From the NCBI GenBank assembly GCA_024137785.1, contig JAHRHZ010000217.1:12851094-12915093 (forward strand): a stretch of 64,000 nt of DNA. Direction: 5' to 3'. The DNA comes from Ginglymostoma cirratum. Taxonomy: Eukaryota. Positions 3,701 through 62,800 of this stretch are shown here, one piece after another; the stretch's first letter is position 1; each line of letters begins with the position of its first letter. The notes below the pieces were generated by a model. That model saw only the letters and a list, made by a program, of their open reading frames with translations. It had not been told where the DNA came from and searched no databases. Made by a program: the position numbers and the translations under genes.

Positions 3701-6700
3701 TCTGTTTTGCCTGGTGCGAAGTGAGGTGAGAACCTTGCACATGGGTTTATTTTGCTTTAGGAAGCAAGTCTTTGAGTGTTATCTTGAAGGCACTTTGAAA
3801 GGCGATGCCATCCAGTACATTAACTGCCCAGTATATTAACCCCACGAGTCTGATTAGGAACCTATTTAATTATATTTCTGATTTAACATATTAAATAATT
3901 AGACATGAGTTTTGGGCATATAGTTGCAATCTATTGCACTGGATCCTTTACTTATGCTTTGTAAAACAAATAGATGAAAAAGTAGATTTTTGTTTGAGTA
4001 GTTTGTTTTCTGTGTAGATTTACTGTGTATCTACCACTATCTAGTAACTGGTGTGCTTTGTACTAAAATGAATGTATGTGGCTAACGTCTCTCATTGTAA
4101 CCACTTAGCGGTCGATTAAGCTAAACTGAAGTTAGGTGATGCAAATATTGCAGAGAAGATGAGCAAGTGAACTGAGACTGTGGTACAGGAATCTGATCTG
4201 GCTGCTGTTAAATTGTTGAAATATCTGCCAAGAGCCACTATGATGAATTTGTATTGTCCATTCTGTACGTTTTCTTGAAAAATCTGAACTGTTCTCAGTA
4301 TCCTGAGACCCTTACAATTAATTAGAATGTACCAATCAAAACTGTACCAGAAGAAAAGAGGGCTGACAGAAGTTGAGATTTATTGCTTATTGGGGAGGCA
4401 ATGGCCTAGTAGTTTTATCGTTGGACTGTTAATCCAGAGACCCAGGTAACGTTCTGGGGACCCAGGTTTGAATCCCGCCAAGGCAGATGGTGGAATTTGA
4501 ATTCAATAAATATCTGGAATTAAGGATCTAATGACCGTGAATCCATTGCCAATTGTCAGAAAAACCCACCTAGTTCACTAATGTTCTTTTAGGGAAAGAA
4601 ACTGCCATCCTTACCTGGTCTGGTCTACGTGTGACTCCAGACTCTCAGCAATGTGATTGACTCTGCAGTTCAGAGGAAGGGTCATCGCACCCGAAACGTT
4701 AACTGTTTTCTCCTCCACAGATGCTGCCAGACCTGCTGAGCTTTTCCAGCAACTTTGTTTTTGTTCCTGATTGAGTCTGAACTGCCCCCTGGGCAATTAA
4801 GGATGGACAGTAAATGCTGCCTAGACAGTGACATCCTCATCCCGTTATTGGATAAAGATTTTAAGCATTTGTGCTTGTTTTCTTTTTGTTTCACAACAGA
4901 ATTACCAGAAAGAAGACCACCAAAACTTGAGATGGATCAAGCAATCTTAAAAGTCTATAATGAGCTTCATGAAGACCTGGTAGTCTCCTGGCTATCAGAT
5001 CACTGCTATCAGGTGGGTTTGAAGTAGTGCAAGTCAACAAAGTTGTGTTTTGTCACCAGTGTAGGTGCCAGAGTGTGTCTTCCATACTCAGCGTGGTGCA
5101 ATTCGAACTAGGGCAGAAGTAGAAAAGAAGTATCAATTGCAAAACCTGAACAATGTTCTCTATCCATTATTGATGCAGCATTGAGAGAGGACACTCTTAA
5201 TGGGAAAACAAATCCTAACTGCTTGTGATCAATTCTGTTAAGACAGCTGCTCTTTACATAATATAGATGCAATAAAGATATTTATGCGTACATATCTTTA
5301 TATGTTGCATATTCATTCTCTGGATATCGGGCACAAATTCATTGAAAGTTGCTCTGGTTAGCTTGTGCTTCAAATTCAGACTAAAATTATTCACAAAGAA
5401 GTAATAGCATTTCAATGTAGCATATAACAATTTTTCTCTTCTTCCGTGAAAGTATACCTTAATGTATTTTGGAGTGCTAACCTGGTTCAATTTTATCAAC
5501 AGAGCTGAGAATAAATTTATTACTGAACATAAGCATTTTTATGAAGTGTGGTCAATGAGAGCAACCTGATTTTTTTTAAATTGTTGAAAGTTACTTTGTT
5601 AAACAGAACCATTAAATACCTTCATTGCTATGAACGAATCATTTTTGTAGTGAATCATGTTTTTTGACACAGTCACAAACAGAGGGAGAAAGGAATAGAA
5701 GGAAGTATTGATTGGAATAGATGGAGGGTGGGTGGATGCTCATATGGATCATAAACATTGGCATGGACCTGGTCGATAAATGACCTGTTTTGACTTTGTA
5801 AATAATTGTAATACAAATGAGTTTTGCATGTATTCCATGTGTGTTCAACATGAGATATGTTCCCAGACTAGCTGAATGGTTCCAATCTTGCATTTTTCAC
5901 CTGGGGGTGAGTCCAGTTTTCTGGGTGGTGTCTGATTTGGGTGAATTAAATTATGCGTTAATAGATCACACGGCAAACTCAAGCACAAATTGCTTCAGGC
6001 AGAGATTGTTTGTTTGTTTTGTAATTTGTCTCTGCGCTGGTTAGGTTGATTCTGGTGCACCACTCACTGGATTTCCAGTCAGGATAAACAGTTTTTAACC
6101 ATTTGTTTTAAGGTCTGCACATTAGTTCGAAAACACTGTAAAGCTAAATAGTAAGGTTAAATGTAAAACTGATTTTGTTATTTAACTGTCTCTCTTTCTT
6201 TTCTGTGTATCTGATTTTCTCAGTGTCTGTACCAGGAACTTGGAAATGTACCTGCAGAAAAACATATAGGGCACCCTAAGAATTCAACATTTGCCATTGA
6301 CACAAAGTATCCAGTAACACTACAGGTGAACAGTAGTGTCAATAAGGAAGTGTGCAGGTTAGTGGATATATTTCCTCATTGTTGCTACTGCAATTGAAAG
6401 TATATGCATTTGGAGAAATTCCCTGCTCCTTAGTACATTTCCCAAAAGAGAGCATGAGCATCTGCTGCGTGACGTGGTTAATACGGAGAGTCAGCTGGAC
6501 ATTTTGATTCAGGCAGCAGTCACAGTCCTTCAATTTGGTTATTAACCAGGGACAAGAGAAGATGTGATTTCATAGATAAAGGAGCCACAGGTACAGTGGT
6601 GGAGGAATCAACCCCTGATGTGTTGCTTGTTATCATTGGAGGTGAGAATAGAGATTGCAGAGAGGATGGGGGAGTAAACCATGACGCTGGTACAGGAATC

Positions 6701-59800: not shown

Positions 59801-62800
59801 AGGAAAAAACAGAGTTACCGTTTCTAGTCTGGTGACCCTTCCTCAGAACCAACTTGCTCAATGTAATTTTTATTCATGACACAAGATGGCAGAGTTGTTC
59901 AAGCGGTCAACTGAGGAAACATCAAACAGATTCAATATGCTTCGAGGCTGGTGATATACAGACTGTTAAATATGCATGACAGTAGTGTCTGTTGAGGACT
60001 AGATGCTACCAGTTTGACTTTATACTTTTTTTCTGTAGATGGTGAATATGATCCTCAGGGAATTTGGAACTGATGGGAATGCAAGGAATCCCATCTCACA
60101 ATACCTCTCAATTGAGAGAGAGTTTAACCTTACATTGATGGGACAAAAAGCTGTAGAATTCCTTGTACAAGAAAGCTTCAGACAGATCCTTACCAGAAAC
60201 TAATATTGCAGTCACTGACAATTTACTTTCCTTGTACTTACAGCAGATGAATTGAAGACATCTGGGAGAAGGAAGTTAAGCAGAGCCCAAAGTTCATGCA
60301 GATTATTCTGAAGTGGTGTACCCGTGAGTAACAGCCGATTTGTTGTTTTGAATTCTCTCACTATTTCAGATAGCTGCAAATTTAGCATATTAAAAACCTT
60401 ACTGTGTAAGTTACAAAGTTTAATTATACCATCATGCTAAATTCAGAGTGAATTTAAAATATCATTGAACTATTTGAATTTGTTTGTAAGAGTGACTTTG
60501 ATGCATTCATAGAGTAACATACCAAAAGTCAAATGCCATGCATTTGGAAGCTGAAGCAAATTAAAAGGAGTAGTGAAAAATTTATATGCCGCAACCTACA
60601 GTGCCATCTTAGGAGCCACAGTACCTAGATACCACTTCTTTAGCTACAAAATCTTAGAAAATAGAGAAATAAATCCAGCAACACTACAACAATACTGCAA
60701 ATGGTCGTCTGTAAACTTGAAAATAAGAGAATACAGTATGGGCACTTCCTAGATCCTCCACTGATCCTTTTTCTTCAAATCATAGCAACGGTGAGCATGG
60801 AAAAGTGAAAGCTGGTTAAAACATTTTTTAAAAAATAAATCTCACGAACACAAGAGGAATAGTGGTGCATTTCTACTTCACAAAACAACTAAACCAGAGA
60901 CGCAGGTTAACGTTTTAGGGACAAGGGTTCAAATTCCAGCCTGGCAAATGATGCAGTCAATATATCTGGAAATAAAGCAAGCCAGTCACAGTAATTGTGA
61001 CATGAAACTATCAATGACTGTTGCAAAAATCTTGCCAAGAAAGAATCAAGAAAAATTATTAAAAGCCTGAAAAGGCAAGACTAATCTCTGACCTCCTCTC
61101 TTTACTAGTTTCAAAGCTCAGGGAAAAATCAGCAAGTTTCAGAATCCAACAAAAATTCATTCAGCAATGTTGTTCCCAGACACCCAGAAGGAGGTGGGAA
61201 TAAGAAAGTAAGTGAGCATGTTGTGTGAGAGCAAAAAAAGCAACAGTGATGGGACTGGGGCGGGGTAATGGTGGAGAAGCTTACCTTAGATTTTTCATTT
61301 TTGATCCTATGGGCTTCATCTATAACCAAATACCTCCAATTAAATTTTTTGAAAACAGATTTCTCCCGGATCAGCATTTCATACGATGTCACACAAACAT
61401 CCCACTCTCCAGGAAGGAGTACATCTCTGATGAAGGCAGCCTGATAATGTAAAAGTGAGTTAGGTTTCAACTGCCCGAACACCAGATAATCATTTTTCCA
61501 GCAACACAAATACAGTGGAAACTGGTCTTGTGGAAATTAAATAACTAAATTTAATGGGAATAAAACATTAACTTAGTAAATAATAGTACAATTCTCCCTT
61601 AATGTGACAGTGAGCAATAAACTACAACATATTTGGGCATTTTTACTCACGAGATTGAGGCAAATTTCTGATTTTATACATGCATAAGAAAAAACAGGTT
61701 ATATTAGCTAGTCTTGAGGTACTGTGAGGGCTGACGTTAACAAATGGTAACAGATCAACTTTCGTTCTGCAGACATATTTTGAGGGAGGTGAACATAAGT
61801 CAATGCAACACAGAACCAAGAAAGCAAAAGATATGACCAATGTCAAAGAATAATAACCCAAAGCAAGATTTCAATGGAGGTTTTCAAGTTTTGCATTAAA
61901 ATTGCCCCAAGTTTTAAATGTCCTTCAGCTGTTGTAGTTTTATTACATGAAGTGTTTGGTTAGATGTCGCAAAAATGTTGTTACTTATTTGGGGAAATCA
62001 AGAGAAAAATCAGAAATATGCCGAAAAGGTTGAATGGTCTGTATTCAGTTAAAAAAAGACTGCTGGAAAAACTTCTTTGCCGCCTAAATGTACTGATTTT
62101 CTTGATATTGTCTGATAGATACTTGATACCTTTCAATTCCTCGCCAAAGTAGCTATTCTTCTCCAGTCTTCCCCGAAAATTCAAGCAGACCATTTAATCT
62201 GTATTCAGCAAGTGACCGGATGAGAGGACAGCAACCATCTCTAAGAATTCTGGATAATTTTTCCAATACAGGGTACCAAGGTATTTGCACATTGGGGTCA
62301 GCCAAAACATATCAGCTGATCAATCTACCACTGCACAACATACTTGCACAAATGGGCAGCACTAAACAATTAAACTCCAGACATTAGTTGTATTGTCCAA
62401 TAGCATTTTTAAGAAAATAAAATTCAGTTCCTTACCCTTTGATCCTTGTCGCCTATTAGACAAATGGCACGGAGAGTCGGTATCCACCTCTTGAATTCAA
62501 GCATCCAATTGTGTAGTGTGGATTTAGGGACTAGAACCATGTGAGGTCCAGGAATGTTTCTGTAATGTTTCATGTACCCAAGGAGAGCAATAGTTTGCAA
62601 AGTCTTCCCAAGACCCTGTTGAATGAAGTACAGAATTAAGCCTCTAGTAAGGCATCGGTGCTTTTCAATCCGAGTTGCCTTGAGGTATTTCTGAATATCA
62701 TAGTGAAATAAACCATTCAGCCCATCAAACATATTCTGCCATTTAATCAGATCATGATTTATCCACATCTTAACTCCTTTCCTCACCTTGGCTCCACATC

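Follow-up and report, generated by a model that had tools for sequence, protein, structure and literature searches.

Penelope-like elements (PLEs) are already known from the literature to have inverted ends, tails, target site duplications (TSDs) of 8–10 bp and minimal hammerheads, solo or paired. We analysed a stretch of 64,000 nt from the shark Ginglymostoma cirratum (contig JAHRHZ010000217.1, positions 12,851,094 to 12,915,093; hereafter the window), in which about a dozen short insertions appear to be decayed PLE ends. Most of them break off at a common point, for which reason we take them as likely short run-off copies of the start of the transposon RNA.

In A. vaga, the pseudo-long terminal repeats (pLTRs) of the EN+ PLEs Pen2, Pen2a and Pen3a share with the shark insertions head-to-head inverted termini, a tail of 30–40 bp at one end only, TSDs (8–10 bp), palindromic junctions, solo pLTRs and microhomology deletions (PMC3846280; PMC8557442). 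In A. vaga the inverted ends flank bodies that carry open reading frames (ORFs), and solo pLTRs are ascribed to recombination or deletion. By contrast, entire insertions in the window, bounded by TSDs, are made up of a single terminus or of two, and their 5′ edge is shared. For PAc, a Poseidon element of Anolis carolinensis, two reverse transcription (RT) start sites bounding the tail have been established in vitro; RT starts 111–118 nt into an ORF that begins at stem II of the hammerhead, nicking and extension occur on both strands, and the main substrate is RNA that has not been processed (PMC11167929). The shark insertions would resemble PAc in having two RT starts that bound a tail about 110–120 nt after stem II, in extension of both strands and in an uncleaved template. 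RT starts and 3′ ends were mapped in that work; fixed 5′ ends and fold-back stubs are not among the descriptions in its accessible parts.

Metazoan PLEs carry minimal type I hammerheads (PMC4209133), and the motif in the window shares with them CUGANGA, one bulged base, G10.1–C11.1, GAAA, a CG palindrome, UU or UC and a short stem I. Such hammerheads are mostly solo, and opposite-strand pairs 100–700 bp apart have been ascribed to probable truncated PLEs (PMC4209133). As far as that source is accessible, its alignment holds no chondrichthyan row and no analysis of TSDs, tails or breakpoints; the copies described here are decayed. Non-LTR retrozymes, reported from one chondrichthyan genome, are likewise short, non-coding, hammerhead-bearing and PLE-derived, and consist of tandem units arranged head to tail, each with its own hammerhead (10.64898/2026.07.22.740005); the copies in the window are instead scattered, bounded by TSDs and found either alone or joined head to head. 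A literature search without most subscription papers, Repbase and Dfam yielded no published description of fixed 5′ ends in short PLE copies, nor of such fold-backs in sharks. A fixed 5′ edge offers a simple genomic test of how inverted and tailed PLE ends are made; comparing the 5′ ends of short copies with a mapped transcript start would give a testable clue to PLE movement.

Fold-back and single-arm insertions

A previous reading of the window from its sequence alone (the sequence-only reading) had described three fold-backs with inverted arms, a one-sided tail and long, variable TSDs. Self-comparison bears all of this out: the TSDs are 16, 15 and 11 bp exactly as claimed, and tails given as 28–40 bp measure 27–39 bp. 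We call these loci A43 (43116–43350), B46 (46564–47229) and C47 (47295–47634), and a fourth 26700 (26701–26851). Positions of 5′ ends are counted from the first base of the hammerhead core.

43100–43115, + strand: left TSD of A43, 16 bp, exact copy at 43351–43366
43116–43213, − strand: A43 inverted arm, tail-less; 5′ end at −5, counting a 1-nt spacer at 43214
43215–43311, + strand: A43 sense arm; 5′ end at −4; decayed minimal hammerhead at 43215–43252
43312–43350, + strand: A43 tail, 39 bp
46549–46563, + strand: left TSD of B46, 15 bp, one mismatch against 47230–47244
46564–46660, − strand: B46 inverted arm, tail-less; core intact, G10.1–C11.1 broken; 5′ end at about −5 (one mismatch)
46664–46745, + strand: B46 sense arm, beginning at stem II (+8), without the 5′ core
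46746–47194: B46 gap region, 400 N (46746–47145) plus 49 bp identical to 46697–46745
47195–47229, + strand: B46 tail, 35 bp, homologous to the A tail
47284–47294, + strand: left TSD of C47, 11 bp, exact copy at 47635–47645
47295–47451, − strand: C47 inverted arm, tail-less; about 80 nt of arm precede an intact hammerhead core
47454–47607, + strand: C47 sense arm; AUG made up of A9, a bulged U and G10.1; in-frame stop after 10 codons in both arms
47608–47634, + strand: C47 tail, 27 bp, 74% A+C
26701–26851: fold-back 26700; inverted arm 26701–26782, sense arm from 26780 (5′ end at −5), tail to about 26851

The arms lie head to head and measure, inverted and sense, 98 and 97 bp in A43, 97 and 82 bp in B46 and 155 and 154 bp in C47; tails of 39, 35 and 27 bp are found on the sense arm only. 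Locus 26700, previously taken for a single arm, is two-armed with an internal deletion after 26788 and a left arm about 15 nt short; no TSD was found there. The junction between arms is a 1-nt spacer in A43, a 3-nt overlap with a 2-nt loop in 26700, a 13-nt loss with 3-nt filler in B46 and a 2-nt spacer in C47. As all four differ, the fold-backs arose separately.

The B46 gap is the sole assembly gap in the window and lies inside the youngest fold-back (arms ~95% identical), suggesting that such hairpins break assemblies. The 49 bp flanking the gap are identical on both sides, pointing to an element of about 217 bp plus an assembly duplication. The true length is thus probably ~217 bp, with 46746–47194 an assembly duplication, and the previously reported span was inflated by the 400-N gap.

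Within fold-backs the arms differ from each other at 17 of 96, 4 of 82 and 25 of 156 sites, and on this ground we rejected selection on the hairpin. Near-perfect TSDs are compatible with this divergence, given their shortness. C47 matches a microRNA model at E = 8×10−7, far under the gathering score. For annotation, such stubs look like miniature inverted-repeat transposable elements (MITEs) or microRNA hairpins; the architecture being known and the copies decayed, no host function is indicated. B46 and C47, which are unrelated, stand 39 bp apart from TSD to TSD in one intron of an ISWI-type gene (46549–47645).

Nine further relatives had been named as single arms. All match an arm profile, eight at E = 6.6×10−36 to 3.3×10−6 and the ninth (53870) at 0.13, with no match in a search of the reversed window. 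Of these, 26700 is a fold-back, 13455 forms the 3′ terminus of a longer copy, and the relative placed at 12097 starts near 12070 instead and includes part of the tail. This leaves seven single arms:

4666–4767, + strand: tail-less; 5′ end at −5; TSD 4654–4665/4768–4779
12070–12190, − strand: partial tail; 5′ core unrecognisable, end at about +5; no TSD found
15973–16066, − strand (locus 15975): tail-less, B-type; 5′ end at about +1; 17-nt A-rich filler; 9-bp TSD 15964–15972/16084–16092
20330–20458, − strand: tailed, diverged; 15-bp TSD with one mismatch, 20315–20329/20459–20473
25995–26073, − strand: tail-less, B-type; only the 3′ half of the hammerhead, with 13 further nt
25982–25994/26074–26086: TSD of the 25995 arm, 13–15 bp
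53871–53946, − strand (locus 53870): arm end and tail, very decayed, E = 0.13; no hammerhead, no convincing TSD
59750–59849, − strand (locus 59748): tail-less; 5′ end at −3, overlapping the TSD; weak 7-bp TSD 59738–59744/59847–59853

The arm at 4666 interrupts a repeat resembling short interspersed elements (SINEs). Four paralogous copies of this repeat lack the insert and have the target once (three copies) or in part (one copy), and these empty sites prove both the insertion and its TSD. TSD candidates were found at 8 of the 12 loci (16, 15, 15, 13, 12, 11, 9 and 7 bp) and no convincing one at 12070, 13455, 26700 and 53870. We compared each score with random intervals, boundaries being fixed within 3 nt. 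The score was reached by none of 3000 intervals for A43, B46, C47, 20330 and 25995, by 5 of 3000 for 4666 and for 15975, whose right boundary was set after the repeat was seen, and by 26 of 3000 for 59748. At 43114–43117, 4768–4772, 59847–59849 and 15968–15972, target and element end share 2–5 nt, as expected from annealing at priming or joining.

The 13 nt that follow the 25995 arm were considered as a second arm and rejected (P = 0.11). Beside 53870, the segment 53975–54045 shows a faint likeness to a sense arm (37–55% identity, no profile match), and the two together may be an old fifth fold-back. A further A-type arm is possible at 46305–46349 (profile E = 6.5×10−4) and was excluded from all locus counts as too decayed.

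Variable TSDs of 7–16 bp, a one-sided tail and head-to-head arms support the retro-origin and Penelope identity proposed in the sequence-only reading, as do the fit to the minimal PLE hammerhead and the attachment of one arm to a decayed GIY-YIG-type motif chain. On this joint anatomy we are highly confident of a PLE origin. The hairpin shape (A43 folding z = −14.6) and single-copy hammerhead descriptor matches no more frequent than chance would suit MITEs of a DNA transposon that match a hammerhead by accident. We regard this as barely credible: TSD length is not fixed, the tail makes the ends asymmetric, with no symmetric terminal inverted repeats, one arm ends a GIY-YIG-type remnant, and two unrelated lineages have the motif in the same register, in agreement with the PLE consensus in print. 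Single arms with TSDs of their own, of which 4666 is proven by empty sites, refute it, and the view that the insertions resemble MITEs but were retroposed stands.

Breakpoints and a proposed mode of insertion

There are two classes of 3′ end, one that includes the tail and one that lacks it. In A43, B46 and C47 the inverted arm is tail-less and the sense arm tailed, and 26700 follows this plan with its left arm shortened; four of the seven single arms are tail-less (4666, 59748, 15975, 25995) and three are tailed (12070, 20330, 53870). From the start of stem II to the end of the tail we measured 125, 118 and 94 nt, to be set beside the RT starts of PAc at 111–118 nt; the two end classes match the pair of RT start sites on either side of the PAc tail.

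The 5′ ends lie at −5 in A43, 4666, 26700 and B46, at −3 in 59748, and at about +1, +3, +5, +12 and +45 in five others. Among the 11 loci of types A and B, ten stop at or inside −5 and one long copy extends beyond; five have their ends between −5 and −3. If truncation is modelled as geometric with a mean of 50–500 nt, this pile-up has P = 1×10−5 to 4×10−8 with 21 windows allowed for, which rejects random truncation (P ≤ 1×10−5); the arm breakpoints are not random. Identity between arms averages 0.29 upstream of −5 and 0.48 from −5 to +19, and the sole pair of high identity upstream is formed by the two arms of one fold-back. The edge is common to subfamilies that are only 50–80% identical. Its sequence fits an initiator pattern.

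We lean slightly towards the view that the insertions are terminal PLE fragments produced by RT priming inside the front pLTR, with run-off at the RNA 5′ end. The internal promoter and transcript start of D. virilis Penelope lie inside the pLTR (PMC2377424), and a start inside the upstream pLTR places RT start sites near both ends of the RNA. Here, a full-length element, presumably Neptune-type for A and B and Poseidon-type for C, would be transcribed from within its own pLTR, for A and B from a putative start 4–5 nt before the hammerhead core. A GIY-YIG enzyme would nick the target twice, 7–16 bp apart, and RT would prime at either of two internal sites 27–39 nt apart, giving tail-less or tailed 3′ ends. 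As the pLTR would stand at both RNA ends, priming in the front copy would leave only 100–180 nt before the template ends, and priming in the rear copy would give ordinary long truncated copies such as 12277–13541. If both nicks were extended, one from each site, the stubs would join head to head with a single tail; snap-back on the first cDNA may equally give a fold-back. Sequence to either side of the predicted cut site is preserved in the copies, so the template would be uncleaved RNA. The insertions would be run-off cDNAs made anew each time from the internal RT start sites, and the copies would since have decayed, keeping neither hairpin nor ribozyme. Front-primed run-off would account for the hard edge common to diverged subfamilies, the intact span across the predicted cut site and the coexisting long copy.

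Several points weigh against this interpretation. Three of the five clustered ends are ambiguous by a few bases (59748 overlaps its TSD, B46 needs a mismatch and 26700 overlaps the partner arm). The P values for the pile-up presuppose a simple model in which loci are independent, with n = 11, and failure to pass −5 is by itself weak evidence should copies average about 50 nt (P = 0.15). An initiator-like pattern occurs by chance at 1.3–2.4% of positions. In D. virilis the transcript starts 46 nt and an intron before the hammerhead (PMC4209133, PMC2377424), and the spacing between start and hammerhead is thus not universal. C is a single locus whose two arms have an in-frame stop in common, hinting at a non-coding template. 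Lastly, no nick motif was evident among the eight target sites, a difference from PAc as well, and the endonuclease identity described below depends on post hoc patterns, all library searches having been empty.

The edge might instead mark a fixed obstacle upstream of the hammerhead (RNA structure, protein or splice junction) at which rear-primed copies were cut off, with a second arm formed by snap-back. Bases −5 to −3 are CAG, splice-acceptor-like, and in D. virilis helix I is where the intron ends (PMC4209133); a small hairpin forms the 26700 junction, and self-priming at palindromic junctions has been proposed (PMC3846280). Snap-back would by itself account for the symmetric centre of C47. 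Yet CAG is retained in the copies, though splicing would remove it, and the single arms 4666 and 59748 end at the same place with no need of snap-back. We consider an obstacle improbable; truncation at random, without one, is rejected by the pile-up of 5′ ends.

The sequence-only reading had favoured a non-autonomous class, that is, stubs with their own promoter and RT starts moved in trans by Penelope protein in the manner of SINEs. Fixed termini among copies and the load of such stubs (~2.7% of the window) are in keeping with it, as is, weakly, the stop shared by both C arms. In A. vaga, pLTRs suffice for mobilization in trans (PMC3846280), putative non-autonomous PLEs have been reported in Chlamys (PMC8557442), and PLE-derived retrozymes exist (10.64898/2026.07.22.740005). 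The proposal passes its own test in that breakpoints are non-random, but front-primed run-off predicts identical ends too, and junctions vary by locus, which argues against a single fold-back master. Moreover, fold-back 26700 groups with the ORF-bearing 13455 copy, with diagnostic bases in common (clade support 83/94, two long rows also in the clade), and, unlike retrozymes, the arms form no tandem arrays in the window. A self-propagating family seems rather unlikely to us.

More tentatively than for front-primed run-off as such, and still short of what we would call likely, PLEs may routinely deposit front-primed stubs of a strong-stop-like kind. A dimer acting at both nicks, one protein subunit per RT start site, would then make the fold-backs. 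Since stubs keep the internal promoter and both start sites, some could afterwards spread alone, SINE-like. If true, the thousands of minimal hammerheads that occur solo or opposed in animal genomes would be explained, and each stub would mark its parent's transcription start.

Lineages, hammerhead motif and a coding relative

A and B arms can be aligned over their full length with the tail, at 50–62% identity, and have stem II strands in common; B arms score E = 1.3×10−23 to 1.6×10−16 on a joint A/B profile that included B rows. In the 14-row tree, B is the sole well-supported branch (99/99), one of 11 inner branches being well supported. Beyond the ribozyme core, C47 is unrelated to A and B, and the window holds no clear second locus of its kind (best other match E = 0.079; null 0.14). 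Judged from these alignments, A and B are homologous subfamilies of one lineage, and what had been called three families with different sequences comes down to two lineages. The related claim that stems I and II differ from family to family is right for C only, A and B using the same stem II strands. C47 resembles PAc (PMC11167929) in its AUG at stem II and its A+C-rich tail; A and B have no AUG there.

The motif is in register in both lineages. Taken column by column, the majority base of 11 arms agrees with the consensus for minimal PLE hammerheads (PMC4209133, supplement) except at G12, which reads G in five arms and A in six and lies in a CpG in A and B arms. The other fixed core columns have the expected base in 8–11 of the 11 arms, helix III is CG by majority and the cleavage site is UU or UC; the family-A hammerhead string reconstructed in the sequence-only reading is supported by the copies. 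Individual copies tell less. None of the 11 arms is fully canonical (intact core, G10.1–C11.1, palindromic helix III and 4/4 stem I), Rfam returned no hammerhead in the window either at gathering score or at E ≤ 5, and a descriptor scan performed about as chance would (one perfect match against 0–1 in eight shuffles; three near-perfect against 0–2). Folding of six single motifs was no better than that of shuffles (z = −0.49 to +0.98). The hammerhead call is thus carried by recurrence in register across copies, not by any single copy, in which the motif is mostly broken. 'Ribozyme-carrying' is apt in this collective sense but not arm by arm, and a hammerhead does not lie in or near each arm: the B46 right arm is without the 5′ core, and 13455 and 53870 have no hammerhead.

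One arm is joined to a longer copy with a paralog nearby:

12277–13541, + strand: longer, 5′-truncated copy (13455 locus), ORF-like at 12277–12545 and 13268–13450; CX4CxxC at 12429, YxGExxxRL at 13304; arm body and tail at 13452–13541
9925–10252, − strand: uninterrupted ORF-like paralog, ~79% identical; VYxIxC at 10055, YxGExxxRL at 10018; no arm attached

Because the paralog is uninterrupted, the two ORF-like pieces are halves of one sequence. They are split by a foreign insert of 722 bp (12546–13267) that has no second copy and no terminal repeat in the window. In shifting frames the order CX4CxxC, VYxIxC, YxGExxxRL and then H residues is that of Neptune-type endonucleases (PMC8557442), which have a CX2-5CxxC linker, two cysteine positions between GIY- and YIG-like boxes, and then R and H. 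The second Neptune-type cysteine is lost to a stop in both ORF-like copies and, unlike the described enzyme, only decayed, frameshifted pieces are present, with no RT core found and no database support. The motif chain occurred once against none in 100 shuffles and YxG[EQ]xxxRL three times against 0.07, with patterns written post hoc; one of these three matches is probably chance. A third endonuclease-like motif at 38737 was rejected for want of context.

The ORF-like pieces had no match in a set of 5.8 billion entries, in 1.84 billion representatives, or in Pfam, PHROGs, NCBIfam, PDB and the ESM Atlas (best value 0.76), and peptides read from arms C and B had none in protein searches. Blank library results are weak evidence, since these sets may hold few eukaryotic repeat ORFs. 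No PLE reverse transcriptase was found in the 150 of 151 stop-free stretches of at least 70 aa that were scanned. We read 13455 as the terminus of a longer copy in which, at the level of motifs, a decayed endonuclease chain of Neptune type can be recognised. Its hammerhead was removed by a deletion, and 13455 as a copy of ribozyme-cleaved RNA was rejected, its start being the deletion junction. We also rejected 12070 and 13455 as one insertion; their diagnostic bases differ and they are probably two.

Genomic setting

The window is vertebrate-type gene DNA, and PLEs have been described as expanded within whale shark introns (10.1101/443036). Other features are the following:

44732–62807, − strand: ISWI-type SNF2 gene with SNF2, Myb-like and SLIDE domain matches
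21914–22231, + strand: HGSNAT-like exon
4392–4855, 18526–18830, 23895–24239, 43490–43785 and 49209–49538: five copies of the SINE-like repeat, 270–330 bp, 69–86% identity

By eye, 35764–36105 presumably resembles a further HGSNAT exon; it had no Pfam match. ARAGORN found no tRNA in the SINE-like repeat. A weak RVT_1 match at 16697–16933 (− strand, E = 0.013) has repeats nearby at 13820–14145, 16298–16619, 14457–14669 and 21646–21857, and these are probably remnants of long interspersed elements.

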